A DNA stretch of 64,000 nt from Lachnospiraceae bacterium (GCA_017395635.1 JAFQOE010000058.1:92202-156201), one strand, 5' to 3'. Positions 16,617-22,570 are shown, counted from the first letter of the stretch. Made by a program: numbers and translations. Notes: generated by a model not told the origin, from the letters alone.

Positions 16617-16787
16617 TTACTCTTCTGTAATTGCTCCTGTAGGGCATGTTCCAGCACATGAACCACAAGAAATGCAAGCAGCAGCATCGATTTCGAACTT
16701 GCCGTCGCCTTCAGCAATTGCTCCAACTGGACAAGAACCAGCACAAGCACCACAAGATACACAGCTATCACCAATAACAAATGCCAT
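16617..16787 (-). CDS. Clostridial-type 2x[4Fe-4S] ferredoxin (56 aa). Absent from the ORF track, evidently because it falls below the track's size cutoff.
   Basis: Hand translation gives MAFVIGDSCVSCGACAGSCPVGAIAEGDGKFEIDAAACISCGSCAGTCPTGAITEE, with two CxxCxxCxxxCP motifs. RBS GGAGGA lies 8 nt upstream. Confidence 0.9.
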   Translation of the reverse strand: MAFVIGDSCVSCGACAGSCPVGAIAEGDGKFEIDAAACISCGSCAGTCPTGAITEE

Positions 16788-16928
16788 GATTAAATCCTCC
16801 TTTGTGTAATATCATTATGACTTATTAATACTAAACCATTAATAAATATATTTTAAATCAACTTGCTTAAGATAGCAAGGATTTTTTAAGGGTTAGAAAT
16901 GTCTAATCTTTGTTAGTATAGCATCGAT

Positions 16929-17690
16929 TTATGCGTTGGCCGCATCTTCTTTTCTACGACGTCTTGCGCCATCCAAGATAACTTCTCTTGCATGGATTGC
17001 GTCTTCTTTGTTAAGAGGTTCCATTCCCTTTAGTGGATATTCGATTCCGAGATTTTCGTATTTTACCTCGCCCATATTGTGATATGGGAGTACGTCTAAT
17101 GCTTTGAGATTCTTTAAGCCACCAATGAAGTAGCCAAGCTCATCTAAATAGTGATCGATAAGCGTAATGTCTTTTACAATTACGTGGCGAATCCAAATCG
17201 GAACTCCCTGTTCATCAATATACTTTGCAAAATCTAAAATGTTATCGTTAGGCTGTTTGCAAAGCTTTTCGTGCTCGTCCGGATTAATATGTTTAATGTC
17301 TAACATAACCAAATCGGTAGCGTTCATCAAGCGGTTGAACTTGGCTAATAATTCCGGATTGTCTCGGTGGAATATAACACCGGATGTATCCAGACAAGTG
17401 TGGATTCCTTTTTCTTTTGCCTTTTCAAAGAGTTCTGTTAAAAAGTCAATCTGCATTAATGGTTCTCCACCGGTAGCAGTAATGCCACCATTCTTGTAAA
17501 AATGATGAAGAGACTCATATTGAGCGAGCAAGTCTTCAACGGTATGTTCTTCGCCACCACGCATATCCCAAGTGTCAGGGTTATGGCAATAAGCACAACG
17601 CATTGGGCAACCTTTGAAGAATATAACAAAACGCATTCCCGGACCGTCAACCGTTCCGCAAGTTTCTATTGAATGAATATGTCCAATCAT
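16929..17690 (-). CDS. pflA: Pyruvate formate-lyase activating enzyme (radical SAM)
   Basis: GHIHSIETCGTVDGPGMRF, CPMRCAYCHN (CxxxCxxC), GGITATGGEP. ATG 17690 has an AAAGGAA RBS. The upstream in-frame ATG 17711 has none. Confidence 0.9.
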   Translation of the reverse strand: MIGHIHSIETCGTVDGPGMRFVIFFKGCPMRCAYCHNPDTWDMRGGEEHTVEDLLAQYESLHHFYKNGGITATGGEPLMQIDFLTELFEKAKEKGIHTCLDTSGVIFHRDNPELLAKFNRLMNATDLVMLDIKHINPDEHEKLCKQPNDNILDFAKYIDEQGVPIWIRHVIVKDITLIDHYLDELGYFIGGLKNLKALDVLPYHNMGEVKYENLGIEYPLKGMEPLNKEDAIHAREVILDGARRRRKEDAANA

Positions 17691-17721
17691 AGTAAAGTTC
17701 CTTTCTTTCATATATCATTTA

Positions 17722-17929
17722 TAGGCGTTTGTGAAACTCGAATATACGTTATGAAGCTTGTGCAAGTATAACAGCACCAACGCAGGACGTTTGCACTTGC
17801 CACAATGCGTAACGGTACTAAGCTCGACTTCGTCTTGCTAAGTACCGACGGATTGTGAAGCACCTGCTTATGGTACTTGTTAAACTTACACAAAGCAATG
17901 ACAGTTTTTGAGAGTTTCGTAATTACCTA
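17722..17929. mobile_element. Foldback MITE copy 2 (208 bp) with a 12-bp target-site duplication
   Basis: TAGGCGTTTGTGAAACTC ... GAGTTTCGTAATTACCTA, flanked by ATATATCATTTA at 17710-17721 and 17930-17941. Confidence 0.85.
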
Positions 17930-18008
17930 ATATATCATTTATACAAGGTATTATATATAAGAGTTTGAGGATAATACATTCTATAAAAGACATATATGGT
18001 TTGTTAAA

Positions 18009-18040
18009 AATAGAGACAAGAGAAAACTCTTGTCTCTATT
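18009..18040 (-). terminator. Intrinsic terminator downstream of the glycyl-radical cistron
   Basis: 12-bp stem AATAGAGACAAG/CTTGTCTCTATT. T-rich on the minus strand. Confidence 0.6.
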
Positions 18041-18056
18041 AAAGATTGTTATTATT

Positions 18057-18193
18057 CTGCTAAGCCACTAGCTCCATTACGCTACGCTTCATGTCGCTGA
18101 GCGCTGCGCGCTATATGCATATTTTGTGAGAAGTCGCTCGTTGTGAGCAAGCTCCCAGAGCAACTTTTACAAAATAAGCGCATGGCTTAGCAG
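18057..18193. repeat. GC-rich compound hairpin (REP-like) closed by an 11-bp stem
   Basis: CTGCTAAGCCA (18057-18067) pairs with TGGCTTAGCAG (18183-18193). Internal sub-hairpins. Confidence 0.65.
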
Positions 18194-18197
18194 GTAA

Positions 18198-18440
18198 TCA
18201 CATTGCCTGATGGAATGTTCTTGAGATAACGTCTGCCTGCTGTTCTGGAGTTAACTTAACGAAGTTAACAGCATATCCAGAAACACGGATTGTTAACTGT
18301 GGATAGTTCTCTGGATGAGCCTGAGCATCTAATAATGTATCACGATTTAATACGTTAACGTTAAGGTGGTAACCACCATCAGCTACATAACCATCTAACA
18401 TGTTAACTAAGTTATCAATCTGCTGTGTATTGTTTTCCAT
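18198..18440 (-). CDS. Stand-alone glycyl-radical domain protein (GrcA/YfiD-like, 80 aa)
   Basis: [59 protein letters not shown] corresponds to the PflB C-terminal radical domain with the RVSGYAV motif. Own RBS AAGGAGGA. Confidence 0.9.
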
Positions 18441-18453
18441 TGTAAAATCCTCC

Positions 18454-18669
18454 TTAATTATTCTTCAATTCTTCATCCATACCTTCCATCAAAGTGGGAA
18501 CGCTACAAGCCAAATCCCCTTTGGCACAGTCGGTACAGCCTAATGTTGCAGTGGTTTTTTCACCATCTGCAATGGCGTCGTCTATGGATACATTCACATG
18601 TCCCTGTCCGTCGCCCATCATCTGATCTAACATTGCAACAATGTCGTCTATTTGATTCTTGTCTGCCAT
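18454..18669 (-). CDS. 71-aa paralog of the N-terminal part of the glycyl-radical module, with a Cys-containing acidic tail and no radical motif
   Basis: RBS GGAGG 6 nt before ATG 18669. [29 protein letters not shown] parallels [28 protein letters not shown] of the next cistron, then continues ...[29 protein letters not shown]. Confidence 0.7.
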
Positions 18670-18766
18670 AATAACCTCCAAGCCTTTCAATTAACATTGT
18701 CCTTCGTTAAGGATGCCGGTGGTTGTTGCCAACCACCAAGCATCTCATTCGTTCATAAATGAAATC

Positions 18767-20806
18767 TTACTTGTTTAAGTCGATTTCGATATCTCCTGCA
18801 AATACCTGATCTTCTTTACCAAGAGCACCTGGGATGATAGTAAATGTATTAGAAATACCATCCTGAGCATCCTTAAATGGAATCTTAGCAACTGAAGCAA
18901 GTGAAGCTACAGCACCGTGAGTATCTCTCTTGTGAAGTGGGTTAGCACCTGGAGCGAATGGTTCACCTTTCTTTCTTCCACATGGTGTATCACCAGTAGC
19001 CTTACCATATGTTACGTTAGAAGTAATTGTAAGGATAGAAGTTGTAGGAAGACCATTTCTGTATACATGGTGTGTACGAATCATGTTCATGAATGTTGTT
19101 ACTAAGTTAGTAGCTAACTCATCAACACGGTCATCGTTGTTACCATATTTAGGGAAATCACCCTCTACTTCGTAGCTTACTACGATACCAGCTTCGTTAC
19201 GAACTGGCTTAACCTTAGCATACTTGATAGCTGATAATGAGTCAGCTACTACTGAAAGACCAGCGATACCTGTTGCAAAGTATCTCTTAACGTCTCTATC
19301 ATGTAATGCCATCTGAATTCTCTCGTAAGCATACTTGTCATGCATATAGTGGATGATGTTCAATGAGCTTACATAAACTCTTGCTAACCAATCCATCATA
19401 TCAACGTACTTAGCCCAAACATCATCGAAGTCAAGGTACTCACCCTCAACCGGACGGTACTTAGGACCAACCTGTACGCCTGAAACCTCATCAACACCAC
19501 CGTTGATAGCGTAAAGTAAACATTTAGCAAGGTTAGCACGTGCTCCGAAGAACTGCATTTCCTTACCGATAACCATTGAAGATACGCAACATGCGATACC
19601 GTAGTCATCACCATGGTCATTTCTCATTAAGTCGTCGTTCTCGTACTGAATTGAAGAAGACTTGATAGACATCTTAGCACAGAACTTCTTGAATCCTTCT
19701 GGAAGTCTTGTTGACCACAATACTGTCATGTTTGGTTCTGGTGCAGTACCTAAGTTGTTCAATGTGTTCAAGAAACGGAATGTCATCTTAGAAACTAATG
19801 TACGTCCGTCTGTACCCATACCACCTAATGACTCTGTAATCCATACTGGGTCACCAGCGAAAATCTGGTTGTACTCTGGTGTACGAGCGAACTTAACACA
19901 TCTTAACTTCATAACGAAGTGATCGATGAACTCCTGAATCTGCTCTTCTGTGTACTTGCCAGCAGCTAAGTCTCTCTGAGCGTATACATCTAAGAAAGTA
20001 GATGTACGTCCAAGTGACATAGCAGCACCATTCTGCTCCTTAACAGCTCCAAGGTATGCGAAGTATGTCCACTGAATAGCTTCCTTAACGTCTGAAGCTG
20101 GCTGAGAAATATCAAAGCCGTAAGCTGCAGCCATCTTTGTTAACTCTTTAAGAGCCTTGATCTGCTCAGAAATCTCTTCCTTACCACGGATAACATCATC
20201 TGTGTAAACGTTACCGAAAGATTCCTTCTGCTGTAACTTATCCTTAATTAAGAAATCTGTACCATAAAGAGCAACTCTTCTGTAGTCACCGATGATACGT
20301 CCACGACCGTAAGCATCTGGAAGACCTGTAATGATGTGGTTAGAACGACAAACTCTGATCTCCTCATCATATACATCGAATACACCTTCGTTGTGTGTTT
20401 TTCTGTGCTTAGCGAAGAAGTCAACAACTTCCTCATCTACTGTATATCCATTATCTTCACAAGCTTTCATAGCCATACGAAGACCACCATATACGTTCAT
20501 ACCTCTCTTGAAAGGCTTATCTGTCTGGAAACCAACGATAGTCTCTTTGTCTTTGTCAAGGTATCCCGGACCGTGTGATGTTAAAGAAGAAACAATCTTA
20601 GTATCCATATCAAGAACACCGCCTGCTTCTCTTTCCTTCTTAGTTAATTCCATAACCTGTGCCCAAAGGTCTGTTGTGTTCTGAGTAGGTCCAGCTAAGA
20701 AAGAATCATCACCTTCATATGGTGTGTAGTTCTTCTGAATAAAGTTACGAACATCTACGAACTTCTCCCAATTGCCACCCTTGAAACCATTCCATTCTGA
20801 TCTCAT
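18767..20806 (-). CDS. pflB: Pyruvate formate-lyase catalytic barrel lacking the C-terminal glycyl-radical domain (679 aa)
   Basis: MRSEWNGFKGGNWE..., active-site GIACCVSS. Ends ...IIPGALGKEDQVFAGDIEIDLNK, where full-length PflB continues into the radical domain. RBS GGAGGAA before ATG 20806. Confidence 0.9.
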   Translation of the reverse strand: MRSEWNGFKGGNWEKFVDVRNFIQKNYTPYEGDDSFLAGPTQNTTDLWAQVMELTKKEREAGGVLDMDTKIVSSLTSHGPGYLDKDKETIVGFQTDKPFKRGMNVYGGLRMAMKACEDNGYTVDEEVVDFFAKHRKTHNEGVFDVYDEEIRVCRSNHIITGLPDAYGRGRIIGDYRRVALYGTDFLIKDKLQQKESFGNVYTDDVIRGKEEISEQIKALKELTKMAAAYGFDISQPASDVKEAIQWTYFAYLGAVKEQNGAAMSLGRTSTFLDVYAQRDLAAGKYTEEQIQEFIDHFVMKLRCVKFARTPEYNQIFAGDPVWITESLGGMGTDGRTLVSKMTFRFLNTLNNLGTAPEPNMTVLWSTRLPEGFKKFCAKMSIKSSSIQYENDDLMRNDHGDDYGIACCVSSMVIGKEMQFFGARANLAKCLLYAINGGVDEVSGVQVGPKYRPVEGEYLDFDDVWAKYVDMMDWLARVYVSSLNIIHYMHDKYAYERIQMALHDRDVKRYFATGIAGLSVVADSLSAIKYAKVKPVRNEAGIVVSYEVEGDFPKYGNNDDRVDELATNLVTTFMNMIRTHHVYRNGLPTTSILTITSNVTYGKATGDTPCGRKKGEPFAPGANPLHKRDTHGAVASLASVAKIPFKDAQDGISNTFTIIPGALGKEDQVFAGDIEIDLNK

Positions 20807-21113
20807 TATAAAATTCCTCCTTGTAAAAATAAATTTTAGGATGTGCATTATAACAGTTCAGAGCCGGATTCTGAAATGCAAGCATTTCGCTGTCTTTGTA
20901 TTGAAATTGCTTGACTCTGCACTATTACAAATCCTCATGACTTAATTATAGTTTTATATTGTATACACGTCAACGGAAAAGTGGTTCGAAAAGTGTACTT
21001 TTTTGAATACACAAATCGAATTTTGGAAAAAGAGGAAATGAAACAAAGCAAGTAAATATCAGTATTTGGAGGTGGGGGCAAATTGTATACACAAGATGTA
21101 GGTGGAGGTAAGA

Positions 21114-21304: not shown

Positions 21305-22570
21305 ATGACAAAACAGATAAAAGAATGCAGAAATAGATATGGAGTATATCTGATTATCACGCTGATAAGCATACAGTTTTATGATGCGTATAGTAGCGAG
21401 TTATATAGTCGCATACAATCCTTATATATCAAAGAATTTCTTCTGGATGGGAAAGGAATGTCAGCAGATAAGGCAATCGCTTATTTGAGCAATTTGATGA
21501 TTCCTTGCTATCTTTTTATTATGCTTGCTCCTGCCTGTAGAAGTTTGGCAGATAAATTCGGAAGAAAAAGAATGTTGATGATTAGTGTTTTGGGTATATT
21601 GATGGGCAGTGGGATATGTGCATTTTCTACATCGATTTACATATTTTTGATTGGCAATATGATTTTGAATTTCTCGAATAGTCTTGATATTCACAATTTC
21701 TACATTATAGAAGAAATTCCAAAGAACCAACAGGGAAAAATGAGAGGAATCACAGGTGGGATTGCAGCACTTGCTGCAATTAGTATTCCTGTACTGCGCA
21801 GTATGTTTGTAAATGCCGGTAGCCAAGGGTGGCGTAAACTATATGGTGCTGTAATTGTAGTGGGAATAGTGTTAATCGTAATGGCTTGCTTCTTGCTTGA
21901 AACAAAAGAATATGAATTAAAAAAGGAGGAGCAGACATATATAAAAAAAGGATTTCCAAGAGACATAAAAATGCAGACGAAACAGTTGATAAATAATCAT
22001 AAGCAGATGTGGAAAGGCAGAAAAATACATTTGCTATTGCTTTTTTTATATGGTATAGCTACAGCGGGAGTTACATTTTATAACGAGCCATTGCTGTCAT
22101 TTTCAGGATTACCGGAAAACATATTAGAGAAGATTTTGTTGGTGCAACCTGGTGTGTGTTGTATTGTTTTAATGCTTGGAGGTCGTATGGCAGACCGCTA
22201 TGGATGGAAAAAGGTTATAACTGGAATGGTTGTGTTATCTATGATAGGATGCTTAGGCTTTGTGGGTTTGAAAGATAACATGAACTGGTGGATTGTGATA
22301 GGTGTATGTTATGGAGTTATGCTCGGTGGGTATTGGAGTGCATATCATTTACTGGAATTCTTGTTCATAAGAGAGGCTACAATCCATCGGAGAGGGGAAT
22401 ATTCCGCAGTCATCACCTACATCAATGGAATCGGTAATGCCATCGGTATTGGTTTGTTTACGGTGCTACTACAGTTATTACCTCTACAAGCAATTAAATT
22501 GATAATAGTGATTCCGGTTTTATTGATAGTAGTGTATTTGTTAAGCAAAATTAAGCTTGTAGAGAGTTAA
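21305..22570 (+). CDS. MFS transporter
   Basis: About 12 hydrophobic segments. Loop motif LADKFGRKRML (MFS motif A-like) and its repeat GGRMADRYGWKK in the second half. Confidence 0.8.
   Translation: MTKQIKECRNRYGVYLIITLISIQFYDAYSSELYSRIQSLYIKEFLLDGKGMSADKAIAYLSNLMIPCYLFIMLAPACRSLADKFGRKRMLMISVLGILMGSGICAFSTSIYIFLIGNMILNFSNSLDIHNFYIIEEIPKNQQGKMRGITGGIAALAAISIPVLRSMFVNAGSQGWRKLYGAVIVVGIVLIVMACFLLETKEYELKKEEQTYIKKGFPRDIKMQTKQLINNHKQMWKGRKIHLLLLFLYGIATAGVTFYNEPLLSFSGLPENILEKILLVQPGVCCIVLMLGGRMADRYGWKKVITGMVVLSMIGCLGFVGLKDNMNWWIVIGVCYGVMLGGYWSAYHLLEFLFIREATIHRRGEYSAVITYINGIGNAIGIGLFTVLLQLLPLQAIKLIIVIPVLLIVVYLLSKIKLVES

Follow-up and report, generated by a model that had tools for sequence, protein, structure and literature searches.

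What does a small gene do in the middle of a split enzyme? Pyruvate formate-lyase (PFL) is the founding member of the glycyl radical enzymes and the most widespread among them. In a 64,000-nucleotide stretch of DNA from a Lachnospiraceae bacterium (GCA_017395635.1, JAFQOE010000058.1:92202-156201; hereafter the window, meaning the whole stretch analyzed), the enzyme is divided over two genes, and an open reading frame (ORF) of 71 codons lies between them. A first-pass annotation had read the product as a cysteine-containing mimic of the N-terminus of the radical domain, and had suggested a radical-less placeholder, a redox- or metal-sensing regulator or a decoy protecting the active site as possible roles. 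Is this ORF a real gene, where does its product come from, and what might it do for the enzyme?

A PFL encoded in two pieces

The minus strand of the window carries a five-gene PFL cluster (20806..16617), in the order core, 71-aa ORF, grcA3, pflA and ferredoxin gene; all features of the cluster given below lie on this strand. The PFL core (18767..20806, 679 aa) matches TIGR01255 (1-665/744, 1075.8 bits) and PF02901, lacks the glycyl-radical loop and aligns to residues 9-681 of Escherichia coli PFL. The 80-aa GrcA3-type glycyl-radical subunit (18198..18440; NF038360, 157.4 bits; PF01228) aligns to residues 683-759 of the same protein and to residues 67-126 of YfiD, with the RVSGYAV motif included in the match. 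PFL is therefore encoded here in two pieces, and the small ORF does lie between the halves as had been claimed, with a core devoid of a radical domain on one side and a GrcA3-type module on the other. The cut falls in the loop between ...IIPGALGK and the helix preceding barrel strand β10. The core stops just before β10; the GrcA3 subunit contributes the helix, β10, the glycine loop and the C-terminal helix.

The longest ORF for the core (20848..18767) would encode 693 aa, starting 14 codons before the position used in nearly all homologues (MRSEWNGF...). A start at 20806 gives 679 aa, which is the length in most relatives and in the NCBI annotation of the identical protein. On this comparison, the core most likely starts at 20806 and not at 20848. 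At its other end, the core finishes in ...IIPGALGK followed by the tail EDQVFAGDIEIDLNK, which is common to relatives. Across split cores, the tail after ALGK is 15 to 20 aa long and follows the pattern E-D-Q-V-F-A-G-D-[IL]-[DE]-[IV]-D-L (18767-18811 in the window). The tail has no counterpart by alignment in E. coli PFL, whose match to the core stops at residue 681, and it might form part of the docking site for the small subunits. Two very recent PDB sequences labeled "formate acetyltransferase", 38lb_A (739 aa) and 38la_A (687 aa), are ~70% identical to the window core and have a split-type tail (ALGKSGNVMFGECD...); they are not in the Foldseek PDB set ending 2026-04-08. Neither a radical domain, nor a β10 module, nor similarity to the small protein was detectable in these two sequences.

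Searching the 64-kb stretch with tblastn returned no further PFL-like genes. Because the window is without another PFL gene, GrcA3 in these genomes is probably an obligate subunit and not a spare part. Downstream, pflA (16929..17711; TIGR02493, 281 bits) encodes the PFL-activating radical SAM enzyme. The last gene (16617..16787) encodes a 56-aa, 2x[4Fe-4S] ferredoxin (PF00037 and related families), which is likely the PflA reductant; the gene is kept after pflA in most loci.

The surroundings vary. Upstream of the window operon lies a gene for a 421-aa predicted membrane protein (21305-22570). In many relatives, a small DUF1858 (PF08984) gene either adjoins the split-PFL operon or shares an operon with pflA (for example L001:3271-3477; L088-L093; L098-L101), and none lies beside the window operon. 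In one distant locus, a gene for a FocA-type formate channel immediately precedes the split core (L094:1593-2195), which fits the cluster being a working, formate-producing PFL.

The small ORF is a conserved gene

The small ORF (18454..18669) opens with ATG, runs for 71 codons and ends in TAA, and its translation reproduces the peptide quoted in the first-pass annotation. The product is an exact match to MBQ4059698.1, a "hypothetical protein". The signals for translation had also been read correctly. A good ribosome-binding site, GGAGG (18675..18679), sits 5 nt ahead of the ATG, and the stop reads TAAGGAGG, running into the ribosome-binding site of the gene that starts at 18440, so that this stop and the AAGGAGG of grcA3 overlap.

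A word-indexed search found 133 close homologues of ~67 to 78 aa. Those with names are all "hypothetical protein", bar one odd JGI label. An HMM scan of 1.84 billion cluster representatives extended the family to 236 clusters with E of 1e-3 or lower, almost all of which are 45 to 130 aa long. When one genome per species was scanned, ~195 species genomes encoded a relative, most of them metagenome-assembled genomes of Lachnospiraceae. Cultured carriers are Eubacterium ruminantium ATCC 17233, Lachnospiraceae C6A11 and YSB2008, and Clostridium sp. CAG:590. A metagenome scan with an alignment of the distant clade added just one locus. Seven candidates (P0127, P0168, P0171, P0199, P0217, P0223 and P0268) were rejected as spurious, being coiled-coil or tandem-repeat proteins whose scores were summed over 5 to 21 repeats. 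Five others (P0187, P0207, P0222, P0238 and P0245; 86 to 140 aa, with the C-terminal motif only) were also set aside, as they look like mis-called or chimeric ORFs. No family in Pfam, NCBIfam or the PDB covers the small protein, and sequence searches of the PDB gave no match with the protein, nor with its family profile at E up to 10.

Among genomes that share the split, the ORF was intact in all 88 loci tested, most of which have a GGAGG-like site upstream of it; in many, neighboring genes are coupled or overlapping. Nei-Gojobori dN/dS, taken over pairs with unsaturated dS, was 0.12 to 0.135 for the small ORF, compared with 0.11 to 0.12 for GrcA3 and ~0.09 for the ferredoxin. Constraint is modular, with two constrained modules and a free linker: pN/pS was 0.27 for residues 1-30, 0.62 for the linker (residues 31-41), 0.16 for residues 42-66, which are the most constrained, and 0.58 for the tail. 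The 71-codon ORF is thus a genuine and strongly conserved small-protein gene. The checks of conservation and purifying selection that the first-pass annotation had proposed both came out in its favor.

The family accompanies split PFL

In each of the 85 loci fetched via the ORF, tblastn placed the core, the ORF and GrcA3 in that order. The genes for PflA and ferredoxin usually lie downstream of this trio and are displaced in a number of loci. Even very distant members (E ~1e-7) are found within the trio. A distant clade, represented by three loci (L095:2616-5985, L096 and L106), has the alternate order core–GrcA (77 aa)–small ORF (63 aa)–pflA, which argues that the link is not an accident of position.

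Sampling from the GrcA3 side gave the same picture. All four clusters looked up had an ORF of 67 to 70 aa, with no Pfam match, between the core and GrcA3, and by translation these ORFs are family members. No split PFL without the small ORF was found in a sampling biased toward Lachnospiraceae, and the claim of a universal pairing is limited by that bias. A synteny search had been suggested earlier; a family member adjoins a split PFL in every context examined.

A front end like the radical module, joined to a cysteine loop

The first-pass annotation had pointed to a likeness between the start of the small protein and that of the radical module. In the stretch that it quoted, 12 of 24 residues are identical, more than chance would give, and within the window the N-terminus finds the radical module with tblastn at E = 5e-4. 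Profile comparison strengthens the case. The family (35 sequences) aligns to GrcA3 (26 sequences) in hhalign with 96.7% probability and E 3.6e-10, over residues 1-32 versus 1-33 only. A match to the N-terminus of the GrcA3 model was obtained with 30 of the 35 members (best E 9.2e-7), and the small protein itself scores 15.9 bits against the NCBIfam GrcA3 model over residues 4-29, where the cut-off is 158.

The N-terminal module (residues 1-30; 18580..18669) consists of a helix (IDDIVAMLD) and a G-H-x-N-V strand. D15, G23, H24 and N26 are nearly invariant in the family and parallel the invariant D15, G22, H24 and N26 of GrcA3, so that the module mirrors the invariant GrcA3 pattern (L-D, G-G-x-H-x-N-V). 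On these profile alignments, the module is homologous to the helix and barrel strand β10 of GrcA3 and PFL; the β10 assignment rests on the alignment of GrcA3 to E. coli PFL 683-759 and on the published topology (PMC8683613).

The rest of the protein is different, again as had been noted. Homology to GrcA3 ends after residues 1-32, and profile comparison found no alignment of the C-terminal half to GrcA3. When a global profile alignment was forced, the cysteine loop fell opposite the glycine loop, with zero confidence in that region. After a variable linker, the family carries the signature K-x-V-x-T...D-C-x(4-8)-A-C-x-x-P-T-[L/E]..G-x-D (the C-terminal cysteine-loop motif, residues 42-66; 18472..18546), followed by an acidic end; the RVSGY glycine loop is absent. 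Across an alignment of 35 members, extending down to ~35% identity, C48, C55 and P58 never vary, and A54 and T59 hardly do. Three cysteines had been counted in the window protein, and the family-wide view divides them: C48 and C55 are universal, whereas C45 occurs only in the closer (Lachnospiraceae) clade and is lost in distant members. The RVxG[FWY] fingerprint is missing from all 35 aligned members, and PF01228 gave no match. With neither an RVSGY loop nor a C-terminal TPEQQ helix, the small protein cannot carry a glycyl radical. We infer from the alignments that it is an ancient, diverged copy of the GrcA3 front end.

RNA structures around the small gene

An 8-bp hairpin lies in the 97-nt spacer between the core and the small ORF (18670-18766). 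It had been described as GGTGGTTG-TTGC-CAACCACC and sits exactly where it had been placed (18718..18737), with a GCAA loop on the mRNA. The spacer fold (121 nt) has an energy of -33.8 kcal/mol and z = -4.06, and 0 of 200 shuffles were as good. Since no U-tract follows, the hairpin is not an intrinsic terminator; a consensus terminator scan called none there, and Rfam, run on the operon, returned nothing meaningful at the hairpin. Spacers of at least 60 nt nearly always contain a strong stem-loop of 8 to 17 bp (L006, L007, L010, L025, L030, L038, L040, L061 and L083, besides the window), whereas short spacers (10 to 50 nt) have none. The stem-loop is thus a recurrent feature of the spacer, but its sequence is not conserved among relatives and differs between lineages, which suggests selection for structure. 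Such structure could serve mRNA processing, mRNA stability or a difference in expression between the core and the small subunits. We read the hairpin as a recurrent mRNA-level feature, for example an intercistronic stabilizer or processing site, that lies outside the mechanism of the protein.

A structured 3' UTR follows grcA3 (17998..18194; 216-nt fold, z = -6.98). It comprises an element of ~150 nt with a 12-bp long-range closing stem, and then a 14-bp hairpin with a U-run, where the core–ORF–grcA3 transcript probably ends. Conservation of the element, with partial duplication, is limited to the four closest loci (L006, L007, L008 and L015), and the element may be a lineage-specific repeat or a small RNA. 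Transcription of pflA probably starts from a promoter of its own (TTAACA-18-TAGAAT, 18007-17978), and a terminator-like site follows the ferredoxin gene (16594-16563). Just downstream of the ferredoxin gene and this terminator-like hairpin, we observed a TwoAYGGAY RNA (Rfam RF01731; 16008-16170, minus strand). This orphan motif, a structured RNA of gut Clostridia, scores 109 bits, where the gathering score is 43.

A candidate radical-less cap

Experiments on the E. coli enzyme provide the frame for what the small protein might do. PFL cut at residue 695 lacks β10 and is fully active once a YfiD radical module has been installed, but its binding to YfiD is below what can be measured and its activation is 32-fold poorer (PMC8683613). 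In oxygen-cleaved PFL, the β10-containing remnant 696-733 serves as a recognition element for YfiD (PMC8683613). The window core and GrcA3 are natural counterparts of these truncated parts (PFL 1-695 and truncated YfiD). Given how poorly a PFL without β10 binds and is activated by YfiD, a natural enzyme of this form plausibly needs a partner for its open slot.

Our preferred reading, to which we give a probability of about 0.4, is that the small protein acts as a radical-less cap in the empty β10 slot of the core, a placeholder or protective piece that exchanges with GrcA3. The protein would be largely unfolded alone and would fold upon binding. Its helix and strand would then fill the empty slot of a core protomer without GrcA3, completing and stabilizing the 10-stranded barrel, and its cysteine loop would lie in the position of the glycine loop, near the catalytic Cys-Cys pair. 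An occupant of the β10 slot that puts a cysteine loop there would be a radical-less cap. It would hold or protect the core until displaced by GrcA3, which would give the active enzyme, and the two thiols could render the exchange oxidation-sensitive. The cap might sit on core that has just been synthesized, on whichever protomer of the dimer does not carry the radical, or on core that has been rid of a damaged GrcA3. PFL has been proposed to show half-site reactivity (PMC12338860), and in such a dimer the protomer without the radical could accommodate a cap.

Several observations support the cap: the strict linkage with the split, purifying selection, homology limited to the helix and β10, the missing glycine fingerprint and the coupled or overlapping genes of many loci. 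The G-H-x-N-V signature of a barrel strand would most readily be retained by a strand that does sit in a barrel, and conservation of the helix together with the β10 signature implies that the protein must at some stage occupy a β10-type environment. Against the cap, it would seem a waste to produce a competitor for the GrcA3 site from one and the same transcript, behind a ribosome-binding site just as good, unless that competitor binds less tightly or only under certain conditions. Furthermore, constraint is strongest on the cysteine loop and not on the docking module, which points to a specific function of the loop that the placeholder idea leaves unexplained.

Structure prediction adds little to this. 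An AlphaFold2 model of the monomer (33-sequence alignment) has a pLDDT of 55.8 and only a helix at residues 4-19; a mostly unstructured predicted monomer is compatible with folding on a partner. A fused chain of core, ORF and GrcA3, modeled from an alignment in which only the window concatenation spanned all three parts and 27 cores of at least 89% identity made up the rest, gave a mean pLDDT of 41.4 with the barrel not folded, and the Foldseek matches of this model to PFL (TM ~0.2) are driven by sequence.

A bolder form of the cap gives the thiols the leading part, and we think it unlikely. PFL would be a three-part machine here, in which the cysteine-loop protein and GrcA3 alternate on one barrel slot with the thiols as a redox gate. 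On exposure to oxygen or an oxidant, GrcA3 would be released or sacrificed and the cysteine cap would park on the core and shield it, perhaps paired with its catalytic Cys-Cys; once anoxia is restored, freshly activated GrcA3 would take the slot back. If true, such a machine would be a built-in, subunit-exchange answer to the oxygen sensitivity of glycyl radical enzymes.

Other roles considered

The same E. coli experiments can be read differently. The small protein could be an adaptor for loading or activation that helps GrcA3, either as the third member of a complex with the core and GrcA3 or as a chaperone that binds free GrcA3 by helix and strand pairing. By analogy, it would act in trans as PFL 696-733 and the N-terminal region of YfiD do, in recruitment and in radical installation by PflA. 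The duplicate β10 that segment 696-733 provides is needed for YfiD binding and for the 32-fold better activation, and truncated PFL and truncated YfiD bind each other too weakly to measure (PMC8683613); the window core and GrcA3 correspond to exactly those parts. A shared locus with strong ribosome-binding sites fits equimolar partners, and either gene order is found. This reading suffers from the sequence comparison, in which only the helix and β10 align, and neither the YfiD N-terminus nor PFL 710-733 resembles the small protein. Each protomer also has a single β10 slot, so that a second β10-like strand is without an obvious site, and the fused model gave no signal (mean pLDDT 41.4). We regard the adaptor as the main rival of the cap, though as less likely than the cap and rather improbable on its own.

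Could the conserved cysteines instead bind a metal? Here, the cysteines, together with His24, with a second copy of the protein or with cysteines of the core, would hold Zn, Fe or a cluster that senses redox state or stabilizes the complex, by analogy with the accessory subunits of benzylsuccinate synthase (BSS; β/γ), 4-hydroxyphenylacetate decarboxylase (HPAD; γ) or methylalkylsuccinate synthase (MASS; δ). In the family, C48 and C55 never vary and H24 hardly does, the Lachnospiraceae clade has three cysteines, the cysteine loop is the most constrained region, and the ferredoxin gene is conserved in the operon. Moreover, three glycyl radical enzymes are known to have small, cysteine-rich accessory subunits in contact with the radical domain (PMC13450708). 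The family has only two universal cysteines, however, with a spacing that varies from 4 to 8 residues, and a four-ligand motif is absent. Its profile matches no PDB chain at E up to 10, although the known accessory subunits are in the PDB, and no iron-sulfur or zinc-ribbon family in Pfam or NCBIfam was matched. A metal- or cluster-bearing subunit is accordingly improbable in our estimation.

We give very little credence to the idea that the small protein is itself a substrate of radical chemistry, as a non-glycyl radical carrier activated by PflA or as a peptide whose cysteine loop is modified by a radical SAM enzyme. It draws on the nearby radical SAM activase, on the analogy with known Ala, Ser and Thr radical enzymes (PMC11528403) and on one of the 35 members, which weakly matches a model of radical-SAM-modified peptides (E 0.036). 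The RVX[AST][FWY] fingerprint of aminoacyl radical enzymes (PMC11528403) is absent, however, as is any conserved neighboring SPASM maturase, protease, exporter or transporter; that weak match, to lachnocin, is at chance level, and pflA is displaced in many loci where the trio is intact. As for a RiPP precursor, the cysteine loop is the most conserved part and not a variable core, and the sole radical SAM enzyme nearby is of the PflA type.

Finally, the N-terminus does look like a duplicated fragment of the neighboring gene, but a dead remnant of a partial duplication of the pflB 3' end, or a chance ORF, is effectively refuted by an ORF intact in 88 of 88 loci at dN/dS 0.12 to 0.135, by a motif invariant across clades >60% different in sequence, by conserved ribosome-binding sites and by retention of the ORF after a change of gene order.

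Split PFL among known systems

These genes touch three questions about PFL: how the radical domain exits for activation, how spare parts find damaged enzyme, and how the enzyme survives oxygen. If the small protein is a cap or a loader, it would give a direct experimental handle on radical-domain exchange and could ease the assembly or the oxygen tolerance of engineered glycyl radical enzymes. Either way, a "hypothetical protein" of ~195 sequenced gut and rumen species gains a context linked to function.

The literature has little to set beside the locus. A 2026 review knows spare-part proteins only for formate lyases (YfiD/GrcA) and accessory small subunits only for HPAD, BSS and MASS, and it makes no mention of a PFL that is split in nature or of a PFL partner with cysteines (PMC13450708). 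Our literature search found no paper on GrcA3, on GrcA in Lachnospiraceae or on split PFL. The first-pass annotation had known of no PFL accessory protein of this type, and none appeared in the curated families or papers that we searched.

Cysteines are also found in the radical-domain region of class III ribonucleotide reductase. That enzyme has a Zn(Cys)4 ribbon in its C-terminal glycyl radical domain, built from two CxxC pairs on the glycine's own chain. It is non-homologous to the small protein, judging by the absence of PDB sequence matches.

Further parallels come from the accessory subunits of other glycyl radical enzymes, BSS β/γ, HPAD γ and MASS β/γ/δ, some of which contact the radical domain and modulate installation of the radical (PMC13450708). 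Like the small protein, they are ~60 to 90 aa long, bear cysteines and are co-encoded with the catalytic subunit, an arrangement that held in every locus of our family. They differ in resembling HiPIP or rubredoxin, with four ligands to the metal, and in having no relation to the radical domain, whereas the small protein derives from that domain and has two universal cysteines. A HiPIP- or rubredoxin-like fold with four Cys, or with three Cys and a His, was not recognized in the small protein, whose monomer model is of low confidence.

Oxygen-cleaved PFL offers another parallel. Its ~683-733 region is likewise β10-containing and radical-less and works alongside a separate radical module (PMC8683613). 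That remnant, however, is a product of damage, whereas the small protein is a dedicated gene product with its own cysteine motif, and after β10 it has no sequence relation to PFL ~683-733.

The nearest relatives are the GrcA/YfiD-type cofactors (GrcA, GrcA2, GrcA3 and phage T4 Y06I). They too are small, encoded with PFL and equipped with the helix and the β10 strand G-H-x-N-V, and the small protein probably contacts the same partner as they do. The difference lies in what follows, an RVSGY loop and a C-terminal TPEQQ helix in the GrcA type and a two-cysteine loop in the small protein, which always co-occurs with GrcA3 and never substitutes for it. Taken together, these comparisons lead us to infer a radical-less accessory protein of a glycyl radical enzyme that is derived from the radical domain itself. 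Nature's cut in PFL falls where workers on the E. coli enzyme cut it artificially, with a third, conserved small protein added.
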